IMG/VR virus record: IMGVR_UViG_3300011921_000001 | Coordinates: 1-62,653 of that record | Length of the DNA: 62,653 nucleotides | Source: a virus | Direction: 5' to 3' (one strand) | In this document: positions 14,463-43,305 of the stretch, in pieces | How positions within the stretch are numbered: position 1 is the first letter of the stretch | How the letters are laid out: each line of letters begins with the position of its first letter | Position numbers and translations under genes: made by a program | The notes under the pieces: model-generated | Told to the model about the DNA's origin: nothing | The model's database searches: none | What the model saw: only the letters and a program-made list of their open reading frames with translations

Positions 14463-14476
14463 CCTTCGGGTTGTCA
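14457..14476 (+). promoter_or_regulatory. 8-bp stem hairpin with TTCG loop (no U-run)
   Basis: TGACAACC-TTCG-GGTTGTCA. Confidence 0.6.
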
Positions 14477-14505
14477 GGCACCATTCACAACAAGGAGAAA
14501 GCAAA

Positions 14506-22163: not shown

Positions 22164-22174
22164 AAGGAGAAAGC

Positions 22175-22483
22175 ATGAAGCAACTGGTACTGCCCAAGAA
22201 AGTGCAGGTGGGCAGCAAGTGGTATAGCGTCGATGTCGTTGAGTCGATGCGCAGAAAGAGTGAGGTCGGGCGCGTGACTTATGACACGCAAAAGATCGAG
22301 CTTGCACGGCGCACGCATCACGGCATACCGCTCAAACTGACAGCGCTGGAGGAGACCTTCTGGCACGAGCTGACGCACGCCATACTGCACGACATGGGCG
22401 AGCACTCACTGAACAACCGCGAGAACTTTGTCGAAGAGTTTGCGCAACGACTGGCCCGAGCAATACGAACAGCGAGGTTTTAA
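22175..22483 (+). CDS. Small HExxH metallopeptidase-like protein (102 aa)
   Basis: FWHELTHAILHD contains HELTH; strong RBS AAAAGGAGAAAGC. Confidence 0.45.
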   Translation: MKQLVLPKKVQVGSKWYSVDVVESMRRKSEVGRVTYDTQKIELARRTHHGIPLKLTALEETFWHELTHAILHDMGEHSLNNRENFVEEFAQRLARAIRTARF

Positions 22484-25215: not shown

Positions 25216-25626
25216 TTGACTGAAACTGAAGATGAGGTGGTTCCAATCGACCTCCTCGTGAAAATCCACAGCCGGATTAAAGGGCGCATCGACACGCTGA
25301 CCAAGGAGTACGACACTGCGGTGGAGCAACTCAAGGCACAGCAAGACGAGGTGCGCTTTGCCATCAAAGACAAGATGAAAGCCCTCGGGCTCAAGTCTGT
25401 CAACACCTCCTACGGGACGGTCTCCCTCTCGACCAAGACGCGCTACAGCACGCAGGACTGGGACTCGTTCAAGAAGTTCATTCTTGAGCACCAGATTGTT
25501 GACCTGCTGGAAAAGCGCATCGCACAGACGAACATGGCGACCTTCCTGCAAGAGAATCCGGGGGCTGTGCCTCCCGGACTGAACTCGTACACTGAGTTCG
25601 AAATTCGCGTAACTAAATCCAAATGA
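25216..25626 (+). CDS. Hypothetical coiled-coil protein (136 aa, TTG start); possibly Gam/Gp157-like
   Basis: AGGAGAAAGCAC RBS; N-terminal coiled coil then a beta-rich domain; family assignment is from memory only. Confidence 0.35.
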   Translation: MTETEDEVVPIDLLVKIHSRIKGRIDTLTKEYDTAVEQLKAQQDEVRFAIKDKMKALGLKSVNTSYGTVSLSTKTRYSTQDWDSFKKFILEHQIVDLLEKRIAQTNMATFLQENPGAVPPGLNSYTEFEIRVTKSK

Positions 25627-25633: not shown

Positions 25634-26617
25634 ATGAGCAACATCACACTTTTTAGCGCATCCAACGTCCCCGCCTTCGCTCGCAACAACGAGCTGTCTG
25701 AAACTGCCAAGGCCCTGACGGGCGGCGGTGCTGGCCTGTCCACCAAGCGCATCTCCATCAAGGGCGGCGTCTTCCGTCTGGTGTCTGGTGGCAAGGAGAT
25801 CGCAGCCATCGAAGACCGCCACCTCGATGTGGTGATCGTCAAGGCCGCGCCCAAGGTCAGCCGCATCTTCTATGCAGGCGCATACGACAAGGACGCTGCC
25901 GCTGCACCTCCCAACTGCTGGAGCAATGACGGTGAGAAGCCCGACGCCTCCATCAAGGAGCCACAAAACGCGACCTGCATGGGCTGCCCCCAGAACGAAG
26001 CTGGGTCTGGCAACGGCAACAGCCGCGCCTGCCGCTTCCAACAGCGCTTGGCTGTGGTGCTGGCCAACAACCCCGAAGGTGATGTGCTGCAGCTCACGCT
26101 GCCCGCAACGTCTATCTTCGGCAAGGAGGACGGCGACAAGCGCCCACTGCAGGCATACGCCCGCTTCTTGGCCGCGCAGACCCCGCCCGTCAATCCCGAG
26201 CAGATCGTCACCCGCATGAAGTTCGACACCAAGGCCGAGAGCCCCAAGCTGTTCTTCACGCCCGTGCGCTGGCTTGAGGATGCCGAGTACGAGACCGTCA
26301 TGGGGCAAGCTGACAGTGAGGAGGCCAAGCGTGCTGTGCTGCTGACCGTGGCGCAGGCCGATGGCGTCAAGGCCCCACCGATGGCGATCCCCGGCAAGCC
26401 CACGCAAGCCAGGGCCGTGCCCAAGGTCGAGCCTGAAGCCGAGGAGGTCGTGGAGGAAGAAGCCCCAGCGCCCAAGCCAGCCAAGGCCCCCAAGACCAAG
26501 CCCGTGGCGTCCGAGGACGACGAGCCAGAAGTTCGCAAGGCTCCCTCCAAGGAGACTGCGGTGCCCGCCAAGAAGTCCAAGCTCGCTGACATCGTGAGCG
26601 ACTGGGACGACGAGTAA
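25634..26617 (+). CDS. Putative ssDNA-binding protein (327 aa) with Cys4 cluster and acidic C-terminal tail
   Basis: CWSNDG...CMGCP...CRF Cys cluster, Pro/Ala/Lys-rich linker, terminal DIVSDWDDE; architecture resembles T4 gp32. Confidence 0.5.
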   Translation: MSNITLFSASNVPAFARNNELSETAKALTGGGAGLSTKRISIKGGVFRLVSGGKEIAAIEDRHLDVVIVKAAPKVSRIFYAGAYDKDAAAAPPNCWSNDGEKPDASIKEPQNATCMGCPQNEAGSGNGNSRACRFQQRLAVVLANNPEGDVLQLTLPATSIFGKEDGDKRPLQAYARFLAAQTPPVNPEQIVTRMKFDTKAESPKLFFTPVRWLEDAEYETVMGQADSEEAKRAVLLTVAQADGVKAPPMAIPGKPTQARAVPKVEPEAEEVVEEEAPAPKPAKAPKTKPVASEDDEPEVRKAPSKETAVPAKKSKLADIVSDWDDE

Positions 26618-27171: not shown

Positions 27172-30144
27172 ATGACACCGCTTGAGTTTCTAGCGGAGGT
27201 TCTGCCGTCGCCGGGTAATGGGTATTACTGCGCCGCTGAGCTTACAAACAAAAAAGAACACGTTTTTAAGGAGACACTTGAAGAGCTAATTCCAACAATT
27301 GAGCGCTGGTCCGCCAAGGGCTACGACACGTACTTCGCGCTGGGCACGTTCGGCACGAGCAAAGACCGCACCAAGGACAACATGCACGCCAGCCAAGTGC
27401 TGGCGGTTGATCTTGACTGCAACCACCCCAAGGACATCCCGCAACCCGACAAGGACACGGGCGAGATGGTCATCAAGCCCAAGGCATACCCAAGCGCCAA
27501 AGCTGCCGCGCAGGCACTTGAAAAGTTCTGTGAAGACACGGGGCTCGCAGCACTGGGCGATCCGTGGATAGTGCACTCGGGCGGCGGCATACACGCGTAC
27601 TGGCCGCTGAGCGAGATGATGTTCAAGGAGGACTGGTTCCCCGTGGCCAAGCGCTTCAAGGAGCTGTGCCACAAGCACGGCCTGAAGATCGACAACGCTG
27701 TGACTGGGGATGCGTCCAGGGTGCTGCGTGTGTTTGATACCACCAATACCGGGGTCAAGAACGGCAAGCGTGTGCGGGAAGCCACCAAGGTTCGCTTCAT
27801 CACTGAGGGCAACCGCTTCGCCGTGGACGACATCGACGCTATCTTGACGGCTGAAGGCATTGACAAAACAGCACCACCGCCCCCACCCACCACGCTGGCG
27901 CTGCCAGGGCAACGTCCGACCAGTGTCAAGGCACTGTCGCCCACGGCGCAGGCCATCATTGGCAACAGCATCACGCGCTTCAAGAAAATCTTGCTCAAGA
28001 CCCGTGACGGCACGGGCTGCGGGCAGATCGCACACTACATCGAGAACGCTGATGAGGATGGCACGGAGCCGCTGTGGCGTGGGCTGCTGAGCTGGACCAA
28101 GGTCTGCGTAGATGGCTCGAAAGCGGCGGTGTGGTTGAGCGACATGCACCCGTACGACCACGACAGGATGTACAGGAAGCTGCACGAGATCAAGGGGCCG
28201 TACTCGTGCGAGGCCATGAACGATGCCAACCCCGGCGTGTGCAATAAGTGCCAGCACAGGGGCAAGATCACAAACCCGCTGGGCTGGGGGCGCGAGGTCA
28301 ATTCAGTGACCGAGGCCGTTGAGATTGAGGTGCAGGTCGAGGATGCGGCACCCCAGAAGCTGTACCGCCCAGAGCCCCCTCGGGGGTATGCGTTCGGCAA
28401 GTACGGCGGCGTGTTCATCGAGAAGGAGGAAGAGGACGGGGACGGCAACACGCAAAAGCGCCAGCACATGCTGCTGCCGTACGATCTGTTCCCCGTGGAC
28501 ATCCTGAACAACAACGGCGTCCATGAGATACACATGCTGGCGGTGCGCAACGAGCATGTGCAAGAAGTGCTGCTGCCGCAAAAGAGCATCGCGGCCAAAG
28601 ACGATGCGCTCAAGCATCTGGCCAGCCAGAACATCATGGCGTCTTTCGGCTCGGGCAATGACAAGAACCTGTACGAGTATGTCCGCGCAAGTGTGGAGAA
28701 GATGAGCACGGAGAAGTCGCCCATACGCATCCCCTCGGCGTATGGCTGGCAAGAGGACGACAGCTTCGTCTTCAACAGCACCATCTTCAAGGCTGGTGCT
28801 GCCCCCGTGTTCGTGCCTATGGCGGGGCTGGAGAACATCGTCTCCAACACCAAGCCCACCGGCTCACTCGACGAGTGGCGCAAGGTCATCAACATGATGG
28901 TGAGGCGCAAACTGTGGAAGCACCTGACGGTGTTCTTGGCGGGCGCGGCGTCCCCCCTCATGCGTTTCACGGGCCTCTTTGGTGTGACGCTGCACTGCGC
29001 CTCGGCAGAGTCGGGTACCGGCAAGTCGCTGGCACTGGACGCTGCGGCATCCATCTGGGGCCACCCGGTGCACTACCGCACGGGCTCTGGCACCTCCGCT
29101 GTGGCCATGCAGCAGCGGCTGGGCCTGCTGCGCAGCCTGCCCCTCGTGACGGACGAGATCACCACCAACAACCGCAACGACTTCGAGTGGTTCCCGGCCT
29201 TTCTCTTTAGTATGTCCGAGGGGCGCGGCAAAGAGAGGATGGAGTCGGGCACCAACCGCGAGCGGCTGAACCTGTCGATATGGGCCGCGTTCGCGCTGAT
29301 GTCTTCCAACCGCCCCGCAGTGGACTACCTGACCAGCGTGCGCCAGCACTCATCGGAAGGCGAGCTGCGCCGCCTGATCGAGATGTCGATGGACGAGAAG
29401 CTGATCTGGGACCCCGCCGAGATCGAGATCATCAAGTCTTTGCAGAGTAACTACGCCGTGGCCGGTGAGGTGCTATCGCGCTACTTTGTGGACAACATAG
29501 GCTACCTCAAGACGCTTGTGCCCCAGACCGTGGCGCAGATGTACAAGGAGTTTGATGCGCCCAACGACGAGCGCTTCTGGATGGCGGGTGCCGGGATCAT
29601 CATTGCCGCTGGCATCCTATTCAATAGCCAGCACACGGGGCTGGTGGACATCCCGCTGCAAGAGATCATCAAGGTGCTTCGCGGCACGTTCGAGAACCAG
29701 CGGGCCAGCATCGCAGGCGGCAAGCGTACGGCAGAGGATGTGCTCAACGCCTACATTCAGGAGTACCAGGGCAAGTTCGTGGTGGTCAAGTTTGGCGAGA
29801 AGGCGGGTGTCCTGGCCGCGTTCAGTGACGGCTCTATCGTCGGCAAGAACACCACGCGCACAGAGATCATGGGCCGCGTCGAGCACGGCGTGGGTGGCGG
29901 TGGTGTGGACTTCTTCATAGAGGAGCGGCTGCTGCGGGCGTACTGCTCGGCCATGAGCTTTAGCTACAACACGTTCCGCGAGCAGATATCCGCGCAGTTC
30001 ATCGTCAGCTTCATGCAGCGCAAGGACATGCTGGCCAAGACGGACGGCCCGCCCATGAGGGTCAGTGCCGTCAAGATCACCAGACGCGCAGAAGACGTAG
30101 ACGATGTCATCCTACAGCCGCTTGTTCCCGTGGCGATCCGTTGA
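27172..30144 (+). CDS. Bifunctional primase-polymerase / SF3 helicase (990 aa)
   Basis: N-terminal PrimPol motifs (LAVDLDC, HSGGGIHAYWPL); C-terminal Walker A SAESGTGKSLAL and Walker B PLVTDEI. Confidence 0.8.
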   Translation: MTPLEFLAEVLPSPGNGYYCAAELTNKKEHVFKETLEELIPTIERWSAKGYDTYFALGTFGTSKDRTKDNMHASQVLAVDLDCNHPKDIPQPDKDTGEMVIKPKAYPSAKAAAQALEKFCEDTGLAALGDPWIVHSGGGIHAYWPLSEMMFKEDWFPVAKRFKELCHKHGLKIDNAVTGDASRVLRVFDTTNTGVKNGKRVREATKVRFITEGNRFAVDDIDAILTAEGIDKTAPPPPPTTLALPGQRPTSVKALSPTAQAIIGNSITRFKKILLKTRDGTGCGQIAHYIENADEDGTEPLWRGLLSWTKVCVDGSKAAVWLSDMHPYDHDRMYRKLHEIKGPYSCEAMNDANPGVCNKCQHRGKITNPLGWGREVNSVTEAVEIEVQVEDAAPQKLYRPEPPRGYAFGKYGGVFIEKEEEDGDGNTQKRQHMLLPYDLFPVDILNNNGVHEIHMLAVRNEHVQEVLLPQKSIAAKDDALKHLASQNIMASFGSGNDKNLYEYVRASVEKMSTEKSPIRIPSAYGWQEDDSFVFNSTIFKAGAAPVFVPMAGLENIVSNTKPTGSLDEWRKVINMMVRRKLWKHLTVFLAGAASPLMRFTGLFGVTLHCASAESGTGKSLALDAAASIWGHPVHYRTGSGTSAVAMQQRLGLLRSLPLVTDEITTNNRNDFEWFPAFLFSMSEGRGKERMESGTNRERLNLSIWAAFALMSSNRPAVDYLTSVRQHSSEGELRRLIEMSMDEKLIWDPAEIEIIKSLQSNYAVAGEVLSRYFVDNIGYLKTLVPQTVAQMYKEFDAPNDERFWMAGAGIIIAAGILFNSQHTGLVDIPLQEIIKVLRGTFENQRASIAGGKRTAEDVLNAYIQEYQGKFVVVKFGEKAGVLAAFSDGSIVGKNTTRTEIMGRVEHGVGGGGVDFFIEERLLRAYCSAMSFSYNTFREQISAQFIVSFMQRKDMLAKTDGPPMRVSAVKITRRAEDVDDVILQPLVPVAIR

Positions 30145-30307
30145 GCGAGGGCAGGGGTTCTTCATCCCCTGCATCGACATAGAAGAGGTGCGGCAAGCAG
30201 GTCTCAAGGAAGCCCTGCGCTGCCGTATCCTCAACGCCCAGGCCCGCCCCAGTATCAGGGACGGGCGGCTTGGCGTGTGGTTTTATCGAGGCAAGGCCAA
30301 GAACTGA
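30104..30307 (+). CDS. Possible small protein (67 aa) spanning the convergent junction
   Basis: Track ORF with good GC3 codon pattern. It overlaps the 3' end of the primase gene by 41 nt and the 3' end of the giant - strand gene by 25 nt; weak RBS. Confidence 0.35.
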   Translation: MSSYSRLFPWRSVERGQGFFIPCIDIEEVRQAGLKEALRCRILNAQARPSIRDGRLGVWFYRGKAKN

Positions 30308-33300
30308 CGGGCAATCTGAACTTTCATTTTGTCAAGCTGCTCTAGGCGCCGGTCTTTTTCTTCCGTGGGCATCGTGGGGCTGGCCTTGATGGCGCGTTCT
30401 TGTTTGGCAAGTTCGCCCAGTTGCTTTTGCACCCGGCCCGAGATGGAAGTCTGTGCAAGGTCGTTGGCGTAGCCTTGCGCAAACTCTTGCGCTTCTGCTC
30501 GCTTGCCTTCCTCAACCAGCTTGTTGTACGAACCCTTGATCCGCTTGATCTCTTGCATCCGGTCGTACGCCTCATCGAGCGTGCCCCGGCCTTCTACCGG
30601 CTGGAACAGCCCGCCAATCAGAGGCACTTTGCTCGGCTTGGTCGAGGGCTCCGCAATCTCTTTCTGGTCAGCCGCCAGTATCGGGTTGGCAAGCTGCACA
30701 ATGGCAATACCGAGCCCGCCGAAGTAGCCACGGATCAGGTAGTCGATGCTGATGGGGGAGATGTCAGACACTTTACCCGTGGCTTGGCCAAGCAGCTTGG
30801 CAACTTCCGTGGTGTTCGTGCGGTACCTGTCAGTGGCCAGTTGCTCTTTCTCCCGCGCAGACTCAATGTCGCCTTGAAAGAACGATTTACCCAGCACCAC
30901 TTCGGTCAAGGGCTTGATGGCCTGCGGCAGCGAGAACGGGTTAGTTTGGTCAAGCAACTTGCCCAGCCCTTTGAGCGTCTTGCCTGCCTTCTCATCGTTT
31001 GCTGCCATGCCGTAGATAGCCTCGGGCAGCGCTTTGAACAAGAAGCCCAGCTCAAACGGGATAGGCACACGCACTGGCTCAGAGACACCGGGGATGTACA
31101 CAAACCAGTTGGCAAAACGCTCCTCTGGTTTGGCGCGTTTGTACGCCTCATCGTCTTCCATCACGGCGGCATACGCGAGCGTGCCCATCGCTAGAAGAGC
31201 GCCGCGTGCCATCATCTTCTCTTTGATCTTCAGCTTCTCACTGTGCGGCATGTCGCCCTTGTACGCCCGGTATATAACGTCCAGACCTTGAATCTGCGCG
31301 TTAAAGAACGGGATCATTATCGACAGCCAGTGCATACTGGGAGAGACGCCGCGCCGCCCGAAGTTCATTGACTCCAAAGTGCGGTTGAGCGCCTCTTGCT
31401 CAGACATGCCTTTGGCCAAAGAGTCTTTGTACACCACGATACGTGTGGCAGCGTCCGCCTGCATTGCAAGCGCATCGGCTTTAGCCAGCGTCTTGGCCCA
31501 CAGCGACTTACCTGCCGAAATGTCTTTGATGAACTTGGCCGTATCGCGCTCATCGCCGCTGAACACGTTGCTGCTGATAGCGCCAGTTTCCATGAGCTTG
31601 CGCTCGGTTTCGTTGCGCCCAGCCACCATGCTGGCCATCTCTTTCATCGAAGACAGCACCGGCACTGCGTCAGTACCTGTGGTCATCCACGCATTCAATG
31701 GGTCACGAATCATCTGGCGTATGGCGTATGCGGGCACACGCGTAACAAACTTGCGCAAGATATCTGACGGGTAGCCCATCAACCGCACGATGCCCGGCAC
31801 CGTGGTCTTGATGCCCTCCATACCCTTGAGGATCAGTTCTGCAGGAATACCGTACAGGTCCGTGTCAATGACAGCGTGATAGTCCTTGCCGTTCTTTTTG
31901 AACCGTACAACATCGGGGCTTGCCGGACCCGCGCCTTCACCTATACGGCTGGCGATGCCCAGCTTTTGCAACAAGAACCCCATCTCTTTGACGGTCTGGT
32001 TGCGCAGCCCCATGTTGGTAATCATGTAGGTGTTCTGCACCGCACTGGTAAAAACCGGCAGTATGTACTCGTTGCCGCCCACAAGCGCCTGCAGTTGTGG
32101 CTCATCCTTGATGTTGGAGATGCGCACGGGCGTCTCCTTGTCAATCATCAACTGCACTTCACCGTTCTTGTTTACGCGGTAGTACGGCACATACGTAACC
32201 GCTTTGAGTTCAGCGGCTTTCTGCGGTGTCATCACGCCCGTCTGCACAAGCCAGTCCATGAGCCCTGCGTTGTACTGCTTGTAGAGTTTGGCAGCGTTCT
32301 CAAACGCGGCCTTAGCGGGCTTGTCGGCGTTAAGCTGCGCCACGATGCCGTCATACTCGGCCTTGGCCTTGCCAGGGTTCTCGAAGTTGAGCTTTTCCCA
32401 ACCAACTTGTTTGGCACGCTCACCGGCCAGATAGACCGTGAACATGTTCTCCAGCTCTGTCGGGTTGGCCATCTTTGCCGCGTTCAACGCCTCGGCTACC
32501 TCGGTCATATTGACGCCCTTGGTGCTGCGAAACAGGCTCTGCGTGAAGCCGTCTTTCTTGGTCAGCTCAAGGCGCATGGGGCCGTTGGTCAGGAACTGCT
32601 GCGAGTACTGGCTGGCGTGCTGCCCAAAGTTAATCAGGTACTGCGCGTTTGTGGCTTCCAACGAGTCTATCTGCCCCTCGTTCATGCCCTTCTTCAGCGC
32701 CTCGCGCAGTGCGCCCCAGCGGTCAACGTACTGCACACGCCCAGCCAGCCCAAAGAGGTTGCCAAAAAACGTGTCAACGATGCCGGGTTCGCGGCCCACA
32801 ACGGAGGAACTCTGCTCTCTGCGCAAGCGAAAAGCCGTCTGCCCATCAGCAGCGCGGTACGGCCCAATCGTTTTGTTGGCAAACGCTTTGCGCGACTGCC
32901 GGAGCACGTTAAACACATCCGATGTAGACAGGCGCGGTAGTGCGGCAAAGCCCATATCGCGCAGCCCCGCCCGCACCATGCCCACCAGCTCTTTAAGCCA
33001 GCGTCCGGCTTTCTCGCGGAACGATTCCGTAACTCGCGCCTCTTCGGTGTGCGCAATGATCTCGCGCAGCGCCTGCAACTTCTGCATTTCCTCGCTGCGG
33101 CCAAGGGCGTCATTAGCTTTGACGACCTGCACCACCTCGGCCACAAGCTTCTTGCCACCAATCTGTTCAGCCAACGCAATCACGTCAGTGTCTTGCGCAA
33201 ACTGGTTGAGGCGTTTTGCACCGATGACCGTATCAACGCCATAGTGGCCGATGATCTCGTGCGCAATTGTTTTCTCAAGGTCTGTGGTATCTGTGTGCTG

Positions 33301-36300
33301 GTCGCCCACAACCAACACGGTGCCGTCAGGAAACACTGCGCCCTGCACCATGCCGTCAGTGGGATCGACGCCTTCAGCCGCCATGCGTTTGAGCAAGCTG
33401 ACCGGGATATTGCGTGCCGTAGGGGCGTATACAAGATTGACGTTCTCGGGGAGCTTCAAGCCGTCAATCACTTTTTGCGCCTCGGCAGCATCGACAGTGG
33501 ACTCGGTCCCGTCTTCACGCAGCCGGTACGCGGTGCCGCCGTCATAGTCATTGGCTTCTTTGACTGCCGTCTCGACGTCTTTTTCAGACATCTTGCTGCC
33601 CGCTACGCGCAATGTTTTGGGTGCCGCGTTTTGTTTTCGTGTTGCCTGCTTAGTGCGCTTGCTTGAGACTTCTTGCTTGCCTGCGGTGGGCAGAACTTCT
33701 TTGAAGTACGCCACCTGTTCTTTGAGCGTGGCTTTGTACTCGGGCGTCTGCTTGCCCAGCGCCATTGCTTTTTCTGGCAGCTCTTTGGCAACTTGCCTGC
33801 GGTATGCCTGCATCTGCGGGTCTTCGTCGCCGTAGCGTTCCTCCAGCGCAAGTATGCGTCTAGTCCGGTCTTTCTCAAACTTGGTGTACGCAGGCGTACG
33901 CTCCCCCAGTTCTATCGCTAGATCGCGCATTTGCTGCGAAGTCTCGGCCTCTTTACGCACGTTTCCCTTGTTGATGCGAGAAGCGGTAGCCGCTGCGCGG
34001 GACTTGGTTTTTTCAGCGCGGCCTTCAGCTTCAGCGGCTGCACGCTTGGCTTCTTTCACAACGCTGGGCTTGGCCAACGGCGTGGTTTCATACAGGCTGT
34101 TTTGCACCGCCAGCACCTGATCGCGGATGGGGGCAACTTTGCCTTCAAGCATCTTGTACTTGTTTTCCAGCGTGGTGATTTTGCGCTGTAAGTTGTACCG
34201 TTCGCTCGCATCCATCAGCCGCGCTGCGGGGGCTTCGCCTTTGCCCAGCTTGGCCTGCACACCGGCCACCTTTTCTCCCATAGTAGGGACAGCAATGCCT
34301 GTCTCCATCTGCTCAGTAAGGCGTGCGTGTTCCGCTGCGGTCTCTACCAACTGCTGGTACAAAGACTTTTTAGCGTTGCCCTGCGGCGTTGTGACCTTGG
34401 CCATCAAGGGCTTAACTTTGTCCAGCACCCACTCATACTCAACGGCAGCAACGCCGCCTTTGTCGTAGAGGTCCTGCAGCGGTTTGTTAGGGTACGTGCC
34501 GTTCTTAAACTTGGTCTTCGCTTCTTGGTCGTAAATCTGGCTAAACAGATCGGCGCGTTCGCGCTTAATTCCAGCGGAATCCAAACGCCCCTCAAGCACA
34601 CTTAGTAAACGGGCACGCTCAGCAGCGGCAGGGTTTTGCGCTTCGCCGCGTGAAATACCGCCCATATCTCGCAGCACATCTTTAAGTTTTGACGGGTCAA
34701 CGTGCCGAGCCAATTCCGTAATTGTTTTGGTGTCACCCCTGCGCAGGGCCTCCTGCATGATGCTGTACGGATCAAAAAGGCCCAGCACTGCGGGTTTGAG
34801 TGCAGGGCGTCCTACGTCTTCTTGAGCGCGACTCAATTCGTAGCTGGTTTTGTTAAGCGTGTCCAAAGCCTGATACAGCTCTGGTGTCTTCACGCCTTTG
34901 GTTTGTGCAAGTTGAGTGACCTGCTGCTCGGCCTGAGCAACTTTTTCTTTAGCCGTCTCGACGGCCTGAAGCTGCGCTGGTTGGATGTTCTCTTCGGCTT
35001 TTGGTTTGGGTGCTTCGGGTACGGCTTCAAGCTGCCCACGCGGCCCCACGTTGGTGTTGGTAAATGCCTGTTTTGCGGACTCTATTTGTGCTTCGGGTCC
35101 GTACAGACCGCGCTCACCTTCAAGCTCAAGCTGCTCTTGCTCTCTTACAGCGTCTTCCGGCGACTTAACCGGAGTAGCCCCACCAAACAACTCACGCGTC
35201 ACACCACGCGTTTGCAGGCCAAGTTGCTTTTCTTGAAGCGCTTGCATACGCTGCTCGTTTGTACTTGCCTGTGTCGTGCGCTCTTGCTGCGCCGCGAGCA
35301 AATCGTCCTTGGCTTTTTGTGCTTTTTCGTAGTCCTTGTCCGCAAGCGATTTTGTGTACGCTGCATTTAACTGCTCCAAGCGCGTATCGAGCGCCTGCAT
35401 TTTTGCACTGGCGTCTTGCTGGAATGCTTCGAGCGTAAGTGGCGATCCGCCGCGCTCTTCAATCAAGGATGCCCGCGCATCAATACGGCGCTGCAAGGTC
35501 TGCCGCTGTGCGTTCAACGCATCAAAAGCTTCTGGGGCCGCGTTGCCGAGTTGCTCCTCGGTACTGGCAAGTTGCCTGCGCAGCGTGTCTTGCTCCAGCA
35601 TCAACTTCTGCACATCCAGCACAGGGTCCGCCGCAGGGATAGGCGCTGCTTGTGTTTGCTGCGTCGGTGCAGTCTCGGCCTCAAGCTTTGCCTGCTGCGC
35701 GGCAAACATCTCGTCAATAGCGCCCTTGCGCTTGTTGTACTCCTGCTCAACGGGTTTGAACTCCGTCTTGAGGAACTCGGTGCGTTGGCTTTCTAGTGCA
35801 TCTTTTTGTTTCTTGGCTTCGATGTACACAGCCTTGTCTTCAGGCGTAGCTTTCTCGTTGGGCTTGCGCAGTCGGAGCCCGTCAAGTTGTGCATCAAACT
35901 GCGCCTTTTGATAGCTCAGTGCTTGGTACTGGTCATACAGTTGGCTCAGTGCCTCGGGCTGGGTACGCGCAGCCTCTTCGGCCTCGACAGCTTTTTGGGC
36001 AGCTTCTTGTTTTTCTGCCTCAACTTGTTGCCGCGCACCACCGCGCTGGCTAAGACGACCTGCAGCACCGAGCGGTGCCAGCAGCCCAACCTGATAGGCG
36101 GTCTGGCCATATTCGGACAGGGCAGCGGCGTCGGTAACAGACAGACCTGCTTGTGCCCGCTCCAGCATCTGCTGGGCAATCTCAGTTGGAATCTCGGCAG
36201 CAGCACCCACAGCGGTGCCTTTGGCCAAAGTGGTCAGCAGTCTTTCTTCAGCAAGCTTTTGTGCGTTGCCCTTGCCCAGAGTCAGCGCTTTCTCCGGGAT

Positions 36301-36975
36301 GCCCGTGAGCTTGCTGACCAGACGCCCACCAAGCGTCAGCGCATAGCCTGCGCCCTCAATGGCAGCTTGGGGAACAGCAGTGGCAGCGGCAGCAGCCCTG
36401 TCAATTGCAATAGGCTCGCCGCGCTCAGTCTGTTCAGCAGCTTGCCGTTGGATGTTGGAGCCAAAGAACTGGGGCAGCATCGAGAGGCCAGCGCCTGCCA
36501 CACCGCCAACAACCGTGCCCACAGGGCCTGCCAAAGAGCCCGCCATAGAGCCCAAACGTGCGCCGCCAAGCACAGCCCCCATCTGCGGAACTTGTTCAGC
36601 AATAGCGCCGGGTATTTGAGAGGCGACTTCCTTGGCAGCGGAGAACAACCCCTGATCCGCATACGCTTTCTTGACGCGCTCAAGACTGGTCGGCTCTGCG
36701 TACTTTTTGGATAGCAGCTCCTGGCGCTCAAGGGCTTGTTTTGCAGCAGCGTTGGGATCGGTTACGGCCCCGGCAGCGGTCTGGTACGCTGACAGCAGCG
36801 ACTCAGCGCCCCGGCCGAATGCGCCAGCAATGCCAGACTTTTGAGTGGGTTGAGCAGGCGTAGCACCAAAAGCATCAGGAAAGTACTTGCGTGCGTCTCG
36901 AACGGCTTCCAGATACGACTGGCCCTCCGCAGCTTCGTAGTACGCCCCGTTTGGTAGCTGTATGTAGTTAGCCAT
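30283..36975 (-). CDS. Giant multidomain virion/ejection-type protein (2,230 aa)
   Basis: Longest ORF and last gene of the late arm. It has a Gly-zipper hydrophobic segment (aa ~130-170), a coiled-coil-like region of about 800 aa, an HEIIGH motif (33244-33261) and a large globular C-terminal half. Confidence 0.7.
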   Translation of the reverse strand: MANYIQLPNGAYYEAAEGQSYLEAVRDARKYFPDAFGATPAQPTQKSGIAGAFGRGAESLLSAYQTAAGAVTDPNAAAKQALERQELLSKKYAEPTSLERVKKAYADQGLFSAAKEVASQIPGAIAEQVPQMGAVLGGARLGSMAGSLAGPVGTVVGGVAGAGLSMLPQFFGSNIQRQAAEQTERGEPIAIDRAAAAATAVPQAAIEGAGYALTLGGRLVSKLTGIPEKALTLGKGNAQKLAEERLLTTLAKGTAVGAAAEIPTEIAQQMLERAQAGLSVTDAAALSEYGQTAYQVGLLAPLGAAGRLSQRGGARQQVEAEKQEAAQKAVEAEEAARTQPEALSQLYDQYQALSYQKAQFDAQLDGLRLRKPNEKATPEDKAVYIEAKKQKDALESQRTEFLKTEFKPVEQEYNKRKGAIDEMFAAQQAKLEAETAPTQQTQAAPIPAADPVLDVQKLMLEQDTLRRQLASTEEQLGNAAPEAFDALNAQRQTLQRRIDARASLIEERGGSPLTLEAFQQDASAKMQALDTRLEQLNAAYTKSLADKDYEKAQKAKDDLLAAQQERTTQASTNEQRMQALQEKQLGLQTRGVTRELFGGATPVKSPEDAVREQEQLELEGERGLYGPEAQIESAKQAFTNTNVGPRGQLEAVPEAPKPKAEENIQPAQLQAVETAKEKVAQAEQQVTQLAQTKGVKTPELYQALDTLNKTSYELSRAQEDVGRPALKPAVLGLFDPYSIMQEALRRGDTKTITELARHVDPSKLKDVLRDMGGISRGEAQNPAAAERARLLSVLEGRLDSAGIKRERADLFSQIYDQEAKTKFKNGTYPNKPLQDLYDKGGVAAVEYEWVLDKVKPLMAKVTTPQGNAKKSLYQQLVETAAEHARLTEQMETGIAVPTMGEKVAGVQAKLGKGEAPAARLMDASERYNLQRKITTLENKYKMLEGKVAPIRDQVLAVQNSLYETTPLAKPSVVKEAKRAAAEAEGRAEKTKSRAAATASRINKGNVRKEAETSQQMRDLAIELGERTPAYTKFEKDRTRRILALEERYGDEDPQMQAYRRQVAKELPEKAMALGKQTPEYKATLKEQVAYFKEVLPTAGKQEVSSKRTKQATRKQNAAPKTLRVAGSKMSEKDVETAVKEANDYDGGTAYRLREDGTESTVDAAEAQKVIDGLKLPENVNLVYAPTARNIPVSLLKRMAAEGVDPTDGMVQGAVFPDGTVLVVGDQHTDTTDLEKTIAHEIIGHYGVDTVIGAKRLNQFAQDTDVIALAEQIGGKKLVAEVVQVVKANDALGRSEEMQKLQALREIIAHTEEARVTESFREKAGRWLKELVGMVRAGLRDMGFAALPRLSTSDVFNVLRQSRKAFANKTIGPYRAADGQTAFRLRREQSSSVVGREPGIVDTFFGNLFGLAGRVQYVDRWGALREALKKGMNEGQIDSLEATNAQYLINFGQHASQYSQQFLTNGPMRLELTKKDGFTQSLFRSTKGVNMTEVAEALNAAKMANPTELENMFTVYLAGERAKQVGWEKLNFENPGKAKAEYDGIVAQLNADKPAKAAFENAAKLYKQYNAGLMDWLVQTGVMTPQKAAELKAVTYVPYYRVNKNGEVQLMIDKETPVRISNIKDEPQLQALVGGNEYILPVFTSAVQNTYMITNMGLRNQTVKEMGFLLQKLGIASRIGEGAGPASPDVVRFKKNGKDYHAVIDTDLYGIPAELILKGMEGIKTTVPGIVRLMGYPSDILRKFVTRVPAYAIRQMIRDPLNAWMTTGTDAVPVLSSMKEMASMVAGRNETERKLMETGAISSNVFSGDERDTAKFIKDISAGKSLWAKTLAKADALAMQADAATRIVVYKDSLAKGMSEQEALNRTLESMNFGRRGVSPSMHWLSIMIPFFNAQIQGLDVIYRAYKGDMPHSEKLKIKEKMMARGALLAMGTLAYAAVMEDDEAYKRAKPEERFANWFVYIPGVSEPVRVPIPFELGFLFKALPEAIYGMAANDEKAGKTLKGLGKLLDQTNPFSLPQAIKPLTEVVLGKSFFQGDIESAREKEQLATDRYRTNTTEVAKLLGQATGKVSDISPISIDYLIRGYFGGLGIAIVQLANPILAADQKEIAEPSTKPSKVPLIGGLFQPVEGRGTLDEAYDRMQEIKRIKGSYNKLVEEGKRAEAQEFAQGYANDLAQTSISGRVQKQLGELAKQERAIKASPTMPTEEKDRRLEQLDKMKVQIARQFLALPR

Positions 36976-37041
36976 TGCTCATCACCCGAATTGTGGTCCG
37001 CCCGTGCGAAGGGCGGCTGTCTTAGCGCACTCTGCCGATTA

Positions 37042-38754
37042 TCAACTGCCCGGAGGCCGAAGTACAGGGGCGTTTTTTGGCGGGGTCACAAAACCGCCGC
37101 CACCGGCTCCGCCCATAGCCGCCATAAACGCCTGAAAGGTCGGAAACTTTTGCTCAAACGCAGGGCCGTTCATTGGGTCAGACACAAGCTTTGTGTACTC
37201 GCCGTACAGGCGCGGTACTTGACCTTCTTGTTTCGACATCCCGTAGCCTTTTAGTAGCGGGCTATCCGGCTTAGCACTGCCCAATGCCTCATACAGATTT
37301 TGCGGTCCTTTGGCAGCGATGTTTGCGGCGACAAGCCGGTTTTGCATCTCTGCAACACTGTTTTCTCTTCTGGACGTCAGCTCTGCGCCCAAGCGCTTGT
37401 CAGCAACATACGCGTCAAACAGCTTGCCTGCTTCTGTCACTTTTAAGCCGTATGCCGTCCGCGCACTGTTAGTCACTTCACGCCTTGTTTGGGAAGCCAC
37501 CTTGTCGGCATCACGCTCAATATCAGACAACTCTTTGTCAGTGAGCATCTTCTCGCTGCGGCGGGCTATATCAAGACGCCCAAAAGCGTCGTCAATTTTT
37601 TCACGAGCATCACCAAGTCGTTCAATCCCCTCGCTGTATTTTTTCAACCCGGCTTGAGCGCCAACACCGATGTTCTGTAGCGCGTTGGGGGATGCGCCTG
37701 ACATCATGGCAAAGCCTGCTTGCAGCAGCGCCATAGGCCCCAGATCGCCTTCTTGTTTGCCAAGTTTTCCTTCGCGTGCTTTCAACCGTTTTTCCTGCTC
37801 AAGCCCAAGCAGCCCCATACCTTCAAGTTGCTGTCTACGCTTTGCGGCGTATTCACGGGCAACTTTTTCATCGGCCTCACCTTGATTGCGAATATCGGCT
37901 TCAAACGGATCAGCCACTTTACCCTGCGGCAAGAACTGGTCAAGCTCTCGTTGGTACGTAGACGGTGTTGACGCCAAACTGTAGATCGACTGGCCAGATG
38001 CTGGCGCTGCCCCGCTGGGACCGCTAAGAAGCTCGATGCCGCTGGGGGGAGGCGCTGGGGGACGTTTGTTTCCCGCACTAGCAACAGGCGCGGCGGGGGG
38101 AGGTGGTTTGAACGCGCCCGCATTCATTGCCATTTGCGTTTCTGCGGCAGAAGGCATAACAGGGGGTATGTTGCGGGGCAGTGCTTGGGCAGCGGAATCG
38201 GCTATTGGGCCTCCGACAGTAGGCGCACCAAACGCCGCACGGCCCGCGCCTGTTGCAGACATCTCCGCTTGGTACTTTTGCTCAGCAGCTTGCAGCGCGG
38301 CCTGTGCGGTCGCCATTTCTTGCTGCGCCGTTTCAAATCCCGTAGGGTCTTGTTGCCGTTGCCGCAACCCGTAGGTGTACAACTTCTGCTGTGCGGCTTG
38401 TGCGCGGGCACGAGCGGAATCCAGCACTCCCCCCGACTGATACCTCGGCACATCGCCGCCGTCAGAGAACGCCACGATGCCGCCTTCGGCATAGTTCATA
38501 TTGCCTGTTGGGAGCTGAGCGATGCCGACGTCCTCGGGCATGGGGGAGGCCATGTCCTGCAGCTCTTGGTCGTTTACTTTAAGTTCTTCAGGCGCGTCCA
38601 TCTGCGCAGCAGTGCGTATTGTCTTGCGGCGATTGGACTCGGTCACAGCTAACGACATGATGTAGGGGTCATGTTTGTGCATCTGCGCGTACTGCTGCAG
38701 CGCTTGGTCGGGCATCCGAGCAAGCTGCGAGGTCATCTGGTTGACGTTAATCAT
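37042..38754 (-). CDS. Internal virion/ejection-type protein (570 aa), Ala/Gly/Pro/Gln-rich
   Basis: Track ORF; low-complexity composition; NYAEGGIVAFSDGGDVP motif; position among internal-protein genes. Confidence 0.55.
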   Translation of the reverse strand: MINVNQMTSQLARMPDQALQQYAQMHKHDPYIMSLAVTESNRRKTIRTAAQMDAPEELKVNDQELQDMASPMPEDVGIAQLPTGNMNYAEGGIVAFSDGGDVPRYQSGGVLDSARARAQAAQQKLYTYGLRQRQQDPTGFETAQQEMATAQAALQAAEQKYQAEMSATGAGRAAFGAPTVGGPIADSAAQALPRNIPPVMPSAAETQMAMNAGAFKPPPPAAPVASAGNKRPPAPPPSGIELLSGPSGAAPASGQSIYSLASTPSTYQRELDQFLPQGKVADPFEADIRNQGEADEKVAREYAAKRRQQLEGMGLLGLEQEKRLKAREGKLGKQEGDLGPMALLQAGFAMMSGASPNALQNIGVGAQAGLKKYSEGIERLGDAREKIDDAFGRLDIARRSEKMLTDKELSDIERDADKVASQTRREVTNSARTAYGLKVTEAGKLFDAYVADKRLGAELTSRRENSVAEMQNRLVAANIAAKGPQNLYEALGSAKPDSPLLKGYGMSKQEGQVPRLYGEYTKLVSDPMNGPAFEQKFPTFQAFMAAMGGAGGGGFVTPPKNAPVLRPPGS

Positions 38755-38755
38755 C

Positions 38756-40978
38756 TCAAGCCCCCATCTTCATAAGTGCCAGCTCGTTCAGACCTGCGCG
38801 TGTCTTGGCCTTGTCCTTGATCGCGCCGCCTTTTTTGCGGTTCATCAAGCCGTATGCGCCTGCTCCTGCAACACCAAGACCTGCCACTTGAGACAGTGCG
38901 CTGGGCGGTGCTTGGTACATCGTGTTCACCGTGCCCAGCGGAGTGCCGCGCATCAGACCTGACAGGTACTCCGTCTGCTGGTACGGGTAGCGCTCTTGGT
39001 TGAGGAAGTCTTGGTACTGCTGGTTGAGCAACTGCTGGCGCTGTTGCTGCTGCTGAGAGCCAAACTGCCCCTGCATCCCGGCAATGTCTCTTTGCTGATT
39101 GAACTGTTGCTGCCCCAGATTGCCCAGTTGCCCGGCACCCTGTGTCGCCGCCTGCAGCCCTTGAAGGCCGTAGCCCGCGCCATACTGGCGTGACTGCTCG
39201 GCAAGCTGCTGCGCGGCTTGGCCGTACTGAGCGCCTTGCCCAGCGGCAGTCATCTGCTGGCCGTAGCCAAACTGACGCGAAGCCTCGCGCTGCTGGAGCA
39301 TGTTCTGGTACGCCTGCTGCTCGGCAAGCTGCGCCTGCATGTTCTGCCCGGAACCTAGCTGCTGGACACCAAGCTGCGCGGCAAGATTTTGCTGCCCGGT
39401 GGTCAAGCCCGCTTGTTGATTGGCGAGCGCTGCCTGCATGGCTTGGCCTGCTGTAAGCCCCTGCGTTTGAAGCTGCGCGGCAAGATTCTGCTGGTCCCGA
39501 GTGAGCCGCGCCGACAGGTTCTGCTGGCCTGTGGTCAAACCCGCTTGCTGATTGGCAAGTGCCGCCTGCATAGCCTGTTGGGCGCTAAGTCCCTGCGTTT
39601 GCAATTGCGCCGCCTGATTTTGGACGTTGGCTTGCTGCTCTGCACTGAGGTTTGCCAGCGAGGTTTGCGTGCCCGTCTGCGTTCTAAGCTGCTGCGCTCC
39701 TTGTTGCGATGCCAGATTTTGCTGGCCCACAGTAAGGCCCGCCTGCTGGTTGGCAAGTGCCGCCTGCATGGCTTGGCTCGCGGACAGACCTTGTGTCTGG
39801 AGCTGCGCTGCTTGGTTTTGTACGTTGGCTTGCTGCTGCGAGGACAGGTTGGCAAGTGCTGTCTGCGCCCCAGTCTGCGTGCCCAACTGCTGGATGCCGA
39901 GCTTGGCCGCAAGGTTCTGCCCGCCGACAGTGAGCCCCGCCTGCTGGTTGGCAAGCTGCGCCTGCATCCGAGCCTGCTGCTCGGTGTTGAACTGCTGCTG
40001 CGCGTTCTGAAACGCCGCCTGCTGGCCGGTGCCATAGATGTCGCTCTTGAGCTGCGCAAGATCACGCGCCTGCGCAGCTTCTGTGACCGCTGTTCGGCCA
40101 CCACCAAACGAGCCCTGCTGAATGGCCCGTGCCCGTTGCTGCCGTCCAGTGAGCGCGGATTGACGTTCGGCTTCGCGTGTCTGCTTATCAACCACGCTCT
40201 GCATGAACGGGTTCATGTAGTCTTCTGCGCTGCCGGGTTGGGTGAAGCTCTGTGTGCTGGCACGTTCGGCAGGCCCCATCTGGTACTGCTGCAGATTGGG
40301 GTTGTAGTCCGTCTGCGCAGCCCGCATCTCAGGGGTAGCGTACTGCCCACCCTGCACTTGTTGTGCAGGCCCCATCTGAAACGCCTCAATGTCAGGGTTG
40401 TAGTCCGTCCTGGCGGTGCGCATCTCAGGCGTGTTGTACCTAGATGCAGGGTTTACCCGCTCAAACGCGCCCATCTCTTGCAGGTTTGCCATCTGCGGCG
40501 CGTCATACTGCCCGCCCCGCACTTGCTGCGCAGGCCCCATCTGGTATTGCTGCAGCTCGGGCGCGTTGATGCCCATGTAGCTGAACTGCTCAGGCCGGTA
40601 CTGCGCGGGGGCCTGGAACTGGTTTTGAAAATTCCCTGGCTGGTACTGCGAGTTCAACGCCCGGTACGCCGCTTGCTGGGTAATGTTTGACGCCTCCCCG
40701 GTTTGTCCGGGGACTTGCATATTGCCAACACTTGAAAACGCTTGTTCCTGTAGCGGAGAGAACTGCGCAATCCGCTCGCCCCCGTACTGCTGGTACGGGT
40801 TTTTATTGATGTCGGTTAGTGCGCTTGCTCTGCCAAGGATTTCCTTGGCGTACGGCTTGGCCCAGTCCGGTACATCCGAGATTTGTGTCTGCGTGGCAGG
40901 TGCGCCTCCACCCCCACTGCCGCCGCCCGCACGGAAGATAAACCACTCCGGGTTGAAGAGCCATTTAAGCAAGTTCAT
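38756..40978 (-). CDS. Gln-rich repeat protein (740 aa), internal virion/ejection-type
   Basis: Track ORF; at least 4 degenerate QAMQAALANQQAGLT.GQQNLA... units; C-terminal NRKKGGAIKDK; ATGA coupling to the upstream gene. Confidence 0.55.
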   Translation of the reverse strand: MNLLKWLFNPEWFIFRAGGGSGGGGAPATQTQISDVPDWAKPYAKEILGRASALTDINKNPYQQYGGERIAQFSPLQEQAFSSVGNMQVPGQTGEASNITQQAAYRALNSQYQPGNFQNQFQAPAQYRPEQFSYMGINAPELQQYQMGPAQQVRGGQYDAPQMANLQEMGAFERVNPASRYNTPEMRTARTDYNPDIEAFQMGPAQQVQGGQYATPEMRAAQTDYNPNLQQYQMGPAERASTQSFTQPGSAEDYMNPFMQSVVDKQTREAERQSALTGRQQRARAIQQGSFGGGRTAVTEAAQARDLAQLKSDIYGTGQQAAFQNAQQQFNTEQQARMQAQLANQQAGLTVGGQNLAAKLGIQQLGTQTGAQTALANLSSQQQANVQNQAAQLQTQGLSASQAMQAALANQQAGLTVGQQNLASQQGAQQLRTQTGTQTSLANLSAEQQANVQNQAAQLQTQGLSAQQAMQAALANQQAGLTTGQQNLSARLTRDQQNLAAQLQTQGLTAGQAMQAALANQQAGLTTGQQNLAAQLGVQQLGSGQNMQAQLAEQQAYQNMLQQREASRQFGYGQQMTAAGQGAQYGQAAQQLAEQSRQYGAGYGLQGLQAATQGAGQLGNLGQQQFNQQRDIAGMQGQFGSQQQQQRQQLLNQQYQDFLNQERYPYQQTEYLSGLMRGTPLGTVNTMYQAPPSALSQVAGLGVAGAGAYGLMNRKKGGAIKDKAKTRAGLNELALMKMGA

Positions 40979-41382
40979 AGCGTGATCCTCATCACTTGAT
41001 GGGTGTTTTCCATGCCCATCTTTTCATACATCTGTACGAGCGTGCCTCTGGCCCAGCACTGCGCTTTTGTCGCGCCATACGCCCGCATCCAGTCCATAGC
41101 TTCTGCAAAAACATGGGTTCTGACAATGCTCTTGCCGCCCATAAGGTTGACATGGGCAACGCGCTCTCGTGGGTAATCCACAAACTCTAACGTCACAGCG
41201 CCTGTAATGCCCACATCGGGCTCTTCCCACACCAGCAAAAACGTCTTGCCCGTACGCACGGCGTACTCAACTTGCTCAATCGTTATCGCGCTGGGGTCAA
41301 GGTCAATGGCTTTTTGCAGCAACGGTGCGGCAGTCGGCCACACCTGCGGCAACTGGTTGGGAGTGATGTGGTACAGAGGCAT
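40975..41382 (-). CDS. GNAT-like acetyltransferase-fold protein (135 aa)
   Basis: Size and C-terminal ...VQMYEKMGME... resemble GNAT motif A/B. The canonical R/QxxGxG/A motif is not evident. Confidence 0.4.
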   Translation of the reverse strand: MPLYHITPNQLPQVWPTAAPLLQKAIDLDPSAITIEQVEYAVRTGKTFLLVWEEPDVGITGAVTLEFVDYPRERVAHVNLMGGKSIVRTHVFAEAMDWMRAYGATKAQCWARGTLVQMYEKMGMENTHQVMRITL

Positions 41383-41384
41383 GT

Positions 41385-42908: not shown

Positions 42909-42957
42909 TGGTGCCTCACAAAGAAGGGGTTGGTCAAGTCTATCATGGGGGTATGTT

Positions 42958-43305
42958 TTAGCCAACTTTCCAGTTGGTCCCGTCAGAGTACACAGGCGTA
43001 AATACTGCACCGCCTCCGGCGACCGTAGCACCAAAGCTAGGCGTCAAAGCGTCAGTCACAAAAGCCCTTGCTCCTGCGCCTGATGTGGCCGCACTGGGTA
43101 GCGCAGCTACGGTGTAGTTTGTCGTTGCCGGGACAATACTGGACACGCCAAACTGGCGCAGTGTGCTGTCAAGCTGGTTAAAGTACAGGCGCAGTATGTC
43201 CGCAAACTGGTTCTGGTACCGCGACTCGTACTCCGTGGGAGCCGCAGGCAAGCGCGGTGCCGTAACGCGGGTGAGCGCAGCGGTAGAGGTGACGATCAGT
43301 GTCAT
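42958..43305 (-). CDS. Virion-associated hypothetical protein (115 aa)
   Basis: Track ORF; position between the 663-aa tail protein gene and the ejection protein genes. Confidence 0.5.
   Translation of the reverse strand: MTLIVTSTAALTRVTAPRLPAAPTEYESRYQNQFADILRLYFNQLDSTLRQFGVSSIVPATTNYTVAALPSAATSGAGARAFVTDALTPSFGATVAGGGAVFTPVYSDGTNWKVG

Follow-up and report, generated by a model that had tools for sequence, protein, structure and literature searches.

A giant LPD38-class protein of a podovirus-like phage carries a metallopeptidase-like domain in an exchangeable cassette between conserved N- and C-terminal modules

We analyzed a giant late gene in the window, that is, the whole 62,653-nucleotide stretch of viral DNA held in IMG/VR record IMGVR_UViG_3300011921_000001 (positions 1 to 62,653). 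An earlier note, made from the sequence alone, had described a giant protein of 2,230 amino acids (aa) and taken its gene for the last of the late arm. Both descriptions held. The protein is encoded by a single ATG-to-stop open reading frame (ORF), which takes up 6,693 of the 62,653 bases (10.7%) and has a Shine-Dalgarno-like GGGTGA 7 to 12 nt ahead of its ATG, and the gene closes a minus-strand arm that runs from terminase through portal, head, tail fibre and endolysin to a set of low-complexity proteins (Table 1). A Pfam scan of the giant protein found one domain only, LPD38, and a PHROGs search returned one family, of unknown function, over aa 1561-2225. The NCBIfam search of the giant protein gave no match. 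LPD38 has been described as a marker of phage-type polyvalent proteins (Iyer et al. 2017, PMC5512222).

A word-indexed search of 5.8 billion proteins yielded 908 relatives of the giant protein, the best 120 of which were mostly 2,000 to 3,200 aa long and lay on contigs of up to 66 kb. We derived the architecture of the protein from BLAST against the first 120 relatives and from a conservation profile of 33 full-length ones, and comparison with 267 relatives gave five parts: an N module, a variable charged region, a gap-free region, an HExxxH domain and a C module (Table 1). The C module is the most conserved and family-defining part. Taken together, the N and C modules amount to ~1,200 aa, and their conservation is far above that of the cargo between them.

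Table 1. Coordinates of the giant gene, its parts and other genes of the phage in the window. Amino acid positions are those of the giant protein unless stated otherwise.
Feature	Coordinates	Strand	Details
Whole giant ORF	30283-36975	-	2,230 aa + stop; ATG at 36975, stop at 30283
N module	36016-36975	-	aa 1-320; 42-77% identity, almost no gaps
Glycine-zipper segment	36466-36585	-	aa 131-170; GxxxGxxxG at 138, 142 and 153
Variable charged region	34456-36015	-	aa 321-840; 20-38% identity, up to 43% gaps; A/E/Q/K/R-rich, proline-punctuated
Gap-free, moderately conserved helical region	33616-34455	-	aa 841-1120; 40-60% identity
HExxxH metallopeptidase-like domain	32896-33507	-	aa 1157-1360; 59-72% identity
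HEIIGH, predicted metal-binding/catalytic motif	33244-33261	-	aa 1239-1244
E1305-I-I-A1308, Glu and Ala both invariant, downstream helix	33052-33063	-	alignments, AF2 model
Exchangeable cassette	32815-33577	-	blastn homology break vs L003 and L006
C module	30283-32883	-	aa 1365-2230 + stop; 48-81% identity, highest at 1561-2040
LPD38 (PF18857)	30619-31152	-	aa 1942-2119; E 8.5e-33, 114.5 bits vs cut-off of 27
C-module sub-region common to phi24B gp47 (its aa 2360-2791)	30286-31473	-	aa ~1835-2229; hmmsearch E 1.3e-24
Large terminase	5029-6576	-	late arm
Portal	2512-5019	-	late arm
Major head protein	61460-62392	-	late arm, across origin
Tail fibre with S74 chaperone	50556-52775	-	late arm
GH108 endolysin (muramidase)	45314-45823	-	late arm
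Virion structural protein	43314-45305	-	late arm
Three low-complexity proteins and 135-aa ORF	between structural protein and giant gene	-	late arm
Primase/helicase gene	27172-30144	+	convergent with giant gene

The segment just upstream of the C module is exchanged between relatives. In about 20 of the 120 closest ones, the alignment with the giant protein ended near aa 1140 and restarted at aa 1365 or 1366, with 450 to 1,100 unrelated residues between the two junctions. The exchange was also seen in the DNA. The window and the related contig L003 are collinear over more than 20 kb at ~85% DNA identity except for this cassette, where 763 bp of the window (33577-32815) give way to 1,489 bp in L003 (13281-14771), the blastn break falling at 33578/32814. 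A more distant relative, L006 (~66 to 80% identical), harbors ~2,980 bp (13368-16351) at the same site, with the break at window positions 33653/32776. The replacement cassettes open with a domain bearing the sequence LLHE(L/G/A)(S/T)HAA and, ~65 residues on, (A/S)EF(L/V)AEV. This HExxH domain is followed either by ART-PolyVal (PF18760; E 1.8e-25 in P0004) or by 700 to 900 aa matching nothing in Pfam, which in this second case results in cassettes of 900 to 1,100 aa. When 272 proteins were searched, 187 were found to carry the HExxxH type of domain and 78 the HExxH type; one had both and six had neither, four of these six being shorter than 1,000 aa and almost wholly C module. This distribution indicates that a peptidase-like domain upstream of the C module is near-universal, while its accompaniment varies.

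The unmatched 700- to 900-aa cassette part occurs in P0012, P0016, P0022, P0023, P0046, P0054, P0067 and P0081 (an example is L006 13368-16351) and contains the strongly conserved stretches NNRH.(I/V)AVV, GWQKFDQ and GTPWCTGAS(V)(G/S)TARSQIE.GDFY(I/V)YY. It looks like one or more undescribed effector domains.

The earlier note had located a HEIIGH motif at 33244-33261, and it lies exactly there. HE[ILM]xGH was kept in 98 of the 98 relatives, among the 120 closest, that align over the segment. We also built a deliberately diverse alignment (A5) of 25 sequences, reaching down to 13-21% identity and including gp25 of phage PTXU04 and a protein of Vibrio phage 1.232.O. Its only invariant residues are H1239, E1240, H1244, E1305 and A1308, and E1312 is nearly invariant. 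The conservation among close relatives and the invariance of H, E and H at such low identity argue that the motif is more than a chance occurrence. The residue preceding the second histidine can be G, V, A, T or H across the homologues, and in one protein, P0173, the loss of a residue gives HELAH, the canonical spacing. In total, a profile of the domain collected 181 homologues with an HExxxH motif.

An AlphaFold2 (AF2) model of aa 1121-1400 reached a predicted local distance difference test score (pLDDT) of 73. The elements follow one another as helix, strand, helix, two strands, HExxGH helix, inserted helices and E1305 helix; in the numbering of the model, the motif sits on helix 110-125 and both E1305 and E1312 sit on helix 175-192. 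This order agrees with the description of the zincin core in Iyer et al., who also reported a HEXXXH metallopeptidase variant in polyvalent proteins (PMC5512222). Foldseek with the same model against BFVD returned nine matches at E ≤1e-3, and every match with a descriptive name was a large multidomain protein of a phage: some contain LPD domains, some are annotated as helicase or restriction enzyme, and one is a MuF-C-domain protein of a Stx phage. At the level of profiles, A5 matched aa 1491-1660 of phage phi24B gp47, where the motif reads HEIIHH (E 2.8e-11 in the 272-sequence search), and the HExxH cassette profile matched positions 2213-2337 of the virion RNA polymerase (vRNAP) of phage N4 (E 5e-5), which fall within the region that Iyer et al. 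unified with zincins. The HExxxH and the HExxH profiles both matched P0150, over the same stretch of this one protein. On the strength of the alignments and the model, H1239, E1240, H1244 and E1305 likely form a gluzincin-type site, with E1305 as the predicted third metal ligand. The domain fits the HEXXXH metallopeptidase variant of polyvalent proteins and would, from its sequence, be predicted to bind zinc and to act in proteolysis.

The earlier note had further compared the motif with the zinc sites of family M49, to which dipeptidyl peptidase III (DPP III) belongs. It is indeed a real and conserved motif of the active-site type, but the likeness to M49 stops at the spacing. M49 enzymes are cytosolic, two-lobe proteins of ~700 aa and have a second motif, EEXR(K)AE(D). 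What the window domain has in common with DPP III is the HExxGH spacing, the glycine before the second histidine and a downstream helix containing glutamate. However, the second motif is not conserved here, as TEEAR is present but keeps only one of its glutamates among the homologues (E1305 is invariant and E1312 nearly so, while R1314 varies), the domain measures ~200 aa as opposed to an enzyme of ~700 aa, and the glycine is not kept in distant homologues. We therefore rejected M49 as the family of this domain, and this is in agreement with the database searches, which gave no Peptidase_M49 match at E ≤5 in 23 members and, in the PDB, did not recover DPP III by sequence or by fold.

The 866-aa C module was likewise modeled with AF2 (aa 1365-2230; pLDDT 76, predicted template modeling score 0.70) and came out mainly helical with a few small sheets. 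In the PDB, it had neither a fold relative (best Foldseek E 0.11, transporter and nucleoporin noise) nor a sequence relative. The structure predictions that the earlier note had proposed for aa 1140-1290 and 1300-2230 gave a zincin-like order of elements for the former and a PDB fold match for neither. A C-module profile built from 214 family members matched the Vibrio phage 1.232.O protein (aa 2535-3285, E 1e-98), PTXU04 gp25 (aa 1395-2190, E 7e-82) and, with the second half of the module only, phi24B gp47 (aa 2360-2791, E 1.3e-24); it gave no match to N4 vRNAP. At the junction between cassette and C module, we noticed the motif G-x-Y-x4-G-x3-F-R (GPYRAADGQTAFR; aa 1371-1383, nt 32827-32865). 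It is invariant in a 23-sequence alignment of the cassette region and unstructured in both AF2 models (pLDDT <50). We regard it as a candidate site of processing or docking.

Turning to the N-terminal half, the earlier note had seen a Gly-zipper hydrophobic segment. The zipper is there, as aa 131-170 are rich in glycine and alanine and hold three overlapping GxxxGxxxG patterns, but the hydrophobicity is only mild, the best 19-residue Kyte-Doolittle mean being 1.38. No 19-residue window above 1.5, our mark of a transmembrane helix, was found anywhere in the giant protein, and its three least polar stretches of this length, at aa 149, 1921 and 2084, score 1.38 to 1.47. An ~800-aa, almost continuous coiled coil over aa 310-1130, also put forward in the earlier note, was not confirmed. 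This stretch contains 39 prolines, and only 5.3% of its 28-residue windows exceeded the 99th percentile of shuffled sequences in a home-made, crude heptad scan with 50 shuffles, which is not equivalent to COILS or MARCOIL. The windows above threshold fall in five short stretches, and A, E, Q, K and R make up 36 to 64% of each 50-aa window. Conservation divides the former coiled coil in two, an indel-rich part (aa 321-840) and a gap-free one (aa 841-1120) that is kept together with the downstream domains in many relatives.

The N module is N-terminal in 223 of the 272 proteins searched. A search with the N module only found 49 short proteins of 185 to 553 aa, one of which (L011) lies on a contig of 3x coverage. 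One fragment homologue is named YcfJ in one source; no other functional annotation was gained. In L010, a distant metagenomic phage, a 445-aa ORF of its own encodes the N module (9001-10338). Its TGA and the TTG start of the next ORF overlap, the latter (10335-18992) encoding 2,885 aa with ART-PolyVal and LPD38. This arrangement could be a true gene split or an artefact of gene calling or assembly. Since it has its own ORF in L010, the N module can apparently work as a separate chain, and the same would apply to the rest of the giant protein.

To determine how far the family extends, we ran an exhaustive HMMER search with aa 1131-2230, that is, the C module plus the HExxxH domain. It gave 6,456 clusters (50% identity) at E ≤1e-3, with 2,206 of them at E ≤1e-30, and in nearly all the match lay at the extreme C terminus of proteins of 2,000 to 3,300 aa. 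The giant protein is thus a genuine polyvalent protein, and the family of giant phage proteins to which it belongs is very large and for the most part uncharacterised. The word polyvalent, already used in the earlier note, proved apt: LPD38 scores above the curated cut-off, and close relatives carry ART-PolyVal in the same polypeptide. Several unrelated domains are joined in one polypeptide of variable architecture, as seen from the five parts and the exchanged cassette, and the gene is encoded among late and virion genes, at the end of an arm for terminase, portal, capsid, tail, lysis and ejection.

Relatives on 60- to 66-kb contigs share a common gene order, namely, endolysin, 135-aa ORF, proteins of ~740 and ~567 aa, giant gene and a convergent DUF927 primase, and the synteny around the giant gene is the same in the window, L003 and L006. 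Elsewhere in L003, a 74-aa gene (21959-22183, minus strand) has a Pfam match to the Acb2/Tad1-hairpin family of anti-CBASS/anti-Thoeris sponges. It sits between early genes for 136 and 328 aa, where L003 has ~85 to 92% DNA identity, and it is absent from L006 and from the window, where 25216-25626 is followed directly by 25634-26617.

The window begins and ends with an exact 77-bp direct repeat (1-77 and 62577-62653) and is therefore a circular assembly, representing a complete genome of ~62,576 bp; the repeat itself is probably a k-mer overlap at the assembly ends. The ~62.6-kb genome is podovirus-like. At the DNA level, the phage itself is absent from the INPHARED phage collection. The nearest cultured relatives of the portal are 52- to 65-kb phages of Pelagibacter (HTVC023P/027P), Roseobacter (CRP-901), Caulobacter and cyanobacteria, as well as Pag-Yong1, which are short-tailed phages, podoviruses.

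As for the neighbors of the giant gene, the three upstream proteins called Gly/Gln-rich in the earlier note are indeed of odd composition (15% Ala, 15% Gly and 8% Pro; 21% Gln, 15% Ala and 11% Gly; 15% Ala, 10% Gly and 8% Gln). The GNAT-like nature of the 135-aa ORF (40975-41382, minus strand) could not be substantiated, as it had no Pfam match at E ≤0.01 and no NCBIfam match at E ≤0.1; its sole match was phrog_22172, a family of unknown function. Its position is kept in L003, L004, L006 and L007 (134 to 135 aa). The 740-aa protein (38756-40978, minus strand; 21% Gln) contains diverged repeats at the protein level, QQAGLT(V/T)GQQNLA...LQTQGL(S/T)A.QAMQAALANQQAGLT, and TRF found no DNA-level tandem repeat in its gene or elsewhere in the scanned region 30283-43100. 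The N-terminal ~100 aa of the same protein gave a weak match to a PHROG annotated as DNA ejection protein (E 3e-4). Further upstream, an 855-aa protein (46701-49268, minus strand) is a mosaic, with parts matching hyaluronidase or endo-N-acetylneuraminidase and tail proteins of different uncultured phages. It probably serves as a further receptor-binding or depolymerase protein, in addition to the tail fibre. A scan of the 3' end of the giant gene gave neither an intrinsic terminator nor a sigma-70 promoter. GC-rich hairpins of the form CCGCCC ... GGGCGG lie upstream of the start of the giant gene (36976-37041) and after its stop (30240-30282). Because they have no T-run, they were missed by the terminator scan, and both may have a role in attenuation or mRNA stability.

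We propose, with slightly better than even confidence in the reading as a whole, that the giant protein is a packaged LPD38-class protein in which the N and C modules form a chassis around a cargo slot with a metallopeptidase-like domain. The protein would be made late and packed inside the capsid, and it would exit with the DNA at infection. The N module, with its glycine zipper, and the 866-aa C module would be the fixed chassis for incorporation and/or ejection, and the segment between them would be an exchangeable cargo slot. In the window phage, this slot would be occupied by a zincin-like metallopeptidase domain alone, its HExxxH site made of H1239, E1240, H1244 and E1305. Most probably, this domain would cleave the giant protein itself into functional fragments, be it in the head or once the protein has entered the host, and we rank cleavage of host proteins as less likely. 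That the glycine zipper and the mildly hydrophobic helices of the C module contact a membrane is speculation. Our confidence falls from packaging to chassis, then to metal-dependent self-cleavage and finally to membrane contact.

Packing in the head and entry into the host with the DNA are probable in view of the late-arm position of the gene, of the phi24B homologue and of what is known of the class. Indeed, proteomics of purified virions showed phi24B gp47 to be abundant there, whereas the cryo-electron microscopy map did not contain it, and it was proposed to be an encapsidated ejection protein (preprint 10.64898/2026.04.10.717836). Conservation of the N and C modules, together with the essentiality of the PTXU04 homologue, argues for a chassis that is needed and is not just a carrier. 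The gene for PTXU04 gp25, a putative polyvalent protein, affected fitness when knocked down in a genome-wide screen and is essential under laboratory conditions. With single guides, plating efficiency dropped strongly, and complementation was impossible, expression being toxic in E. coli or interfering with infection (PMC11879866). The term effector in the earlier note may for this reason understate the role of the giant protein. Self-cutting by the HExxxH domain would be consistent with the near-universal presence of a peptidase-like domain, with the split versions and with a hypothesis from the literature.

Several points weigh against this proposal. Virion packaging of the giant protein is argued from the position of its gene and from a homologue, and self-processing is an idea taken from the literature. 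Peptide fingerprinting of PTXU04 particles assigned four bands only, and gp25 was not among them, although this result is uninformative (PMC6563267). The glycine-zipper segment is too weakly hydrophobic to be labeled a transmembrane helix. With no structural relative for the C module, only its conservation and position speak for the role proposed for it. Concerning the HExxxH domain, the model is of only moderate confidence, and Foldseek found nothing for it in the PDB (best E 0.47). The best PDB sequence match, 3e11, is a predicted zincin, yet it covers the motif only (E 0.043), and the Pfam matches were all below threshold (DUF2268 in 6 of 23 members, Zincin_1 in 2 of 23). Finally, hhalign placed A5 and the alternative cassette well on each other but at E 0.008 and a probability of 4.8%, and it found nothing with the shallow alignment A1 against the alternative cassette alignment A4.

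A stronger version of the proposal, which we regard as possible but tentative, would make the N and C modules an unrecognised, essential genome-delivery chassis with a fold unrelated to the ejection proteins of T7 and P22, into which interchangeable effector cassettes are plugged and from which a built-in HExx(x)H peptidase frees them after entry.

An unlikely alternative is that the giant protein resembles DarB or DdrB in being a dispensable carrier for anti-defence, packaged and injected to neutralise host immunity and nothing else, its conserved modules serving packaging only. The Vibrio phage relative would suit such a role, as it joins DarB-like helicase, methyltransferase and GNAT domains to the same HExxxH domain and C module, and so would the ADP-ribosyltransferase cassettes of relatives and a cassette exchange that resembles an arms race. 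However, no anti-restriction domain is recognisable in the giant protein itself, the PTXU04 homologue is required for plaques on laboratory E. coli, and a Xuquatrovirus relative was reported to be very sensitive to restriction-modification (PMC11990801). Moreover, the cargo is far less conserved than the N and C modules.

In a reading that we consider improbable, the giant protein would build a trans-periplasmic conduit, for which its HExxGH domain would open the peptidoglycan as a cell-wall peptidase. A function of this kind was proposed for gp47 by the phi24B authors (preprint 10.64898/2026.04.10.717836), and the giant gene adjoins candidate ejection proteins, but the domain shows no likeness to M15, M23 or NlpC/P60 in Pfam, PDB or BFVD, and the phage has a separate GH108 muramidase. 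The related domains of N4 vRNAP and of plasmid polyvalent proteins are not tied to wall lysis either (PMC5512222).

We give even less weight to a structural ruler or inner-core protein whose helical region sets a length and whose HExxGH is a non-catalytic relic. The invariance of H, E, H and E in more than 180 homologues, down to ~15% identity, is unlike a relic. It is true that ~800 aa are charged, helix-favouring and variable in length, and BFVD contained a weak match to a tape-measure protein (rank 14, E 0.19); nevertheless, the helical region is the least conserved part, no tape-measure family matched in Pfam or PHROGs, no PDB fold matched, the T7 core proteins included, and the cultured phages nearest by portal are short-tailed. 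Least probable of all is a late cytoplasmic protein outside the virion, such as an assembly factor or maturation protease, for although gp25 was missing from the identified PTXU04 bands, the phi24B homologue is abundant in virions, a late-arm place beside ejection-type proteins was tied to packaging in the polyvalent-protein survey (PMC5512222), and it is hard to see why an assembly factor in the cytoplasm would require 2,230 aa and an exchangeable ART cassette.

In many podovirus-like phages of 35 to 65 kb, about one tenth of the coding capacity is devoted to giant LPD38-class proteins, which are abundant in metagenomes. One of them is essential (PTXU04) and one is a major virion component (phi24B). 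The window protein is a minimal example, with the proposed chassis and a peptidase-like domain but no other recognisable enzyme. Close relatives that differ almost only in the cassette represent a natural series for separating the function of the chassis from that of the cargo and for asking whether the peptidase processes the giant protein. If the stronger version of the chassis proposal is true, these giant proteins would serve phages as a modular platform for injection, beyond any accessory part in anti-defence, and the platform would be widespread, with 6,456 clusters, mostly from uncultured phages.

Among the known systems considered as candidates, the N4-type virion RNA polymerase was rejected because no RNA polymerase family was found in Pfam, NCBIfam or PHROGs and both window profiles miss N4 gp50. 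DarB-type anti-restriction proteins were rejected for the absence here of SF2 helicase and DNA methyltransferase domains, tape measure proteins for want of a family match in Pfam or PHROGs, and the T7-type ejectosome core (gp14/gp15/gp16) because the C module has no PDB fold match and an N-terminal transglycosylase domain is missing.

N4 gp50, the vRNAP, is packaged and injected, and its zincin-like metallopeptidase domain lies in the region needed for encapsidation (PMC5512222). Like the window protein, it is a giant with a zincin-like domain, and this region is the one matched by the HExxH cassette of the window's relatives; in contrast, its RNA polymerase module is absent from the window protein, and the C-module and HExxxH profiles of the window do not match it. 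NVP1232O_28 of Vibrio phage 1.232.O (3,292 aa, DarB-like) harbors an HExxxH domain (HELVVH) followed by a C module with LPD38, as in the window, whereas the SF2 helicase, methyltransferase, GNAT and ExoX-like_C domains upstream are all absent from the window protein.

The product of the Stx phage phi24B, gp47 (vb_24B_48, 2,807 aa), is similarly a giant encoded at the end of the structural region with LPD38 near its C terminus, and two of its parts, the HExx(x)H domain and the last ~430 aa, match the window protein. It differs in having LPD5, LPD1 and MuF_C of its own, in lacking the N module and the first half of the C module, and in its motif, which has a histidine at +4 as well as at +5; tblastn gives no link between the two proteins. 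Similar in size is gp25 of the Xuquatrovirus PTXU04 (PTXU04_00025, 2,197 aa). This phage is a ~61-kb podovirus, and its gp25 gene lies close to the end of the late arm, with only two small ORFs after it. Its product bears HEIIVH at the equivalent site, and the C module is full-length (24% identity over 833 columns), but the N-terminal 1,000 aa are unrelated to the window protein. As the homologues in PTXU04 and phi24B had already been flagged, the giant protein is not a new class of system. What is modestly new is the absence of a solved structural relative for the conserved parts, the size of the family, and a fixed N module and 866-aa C module that bound a precise exchange slot.

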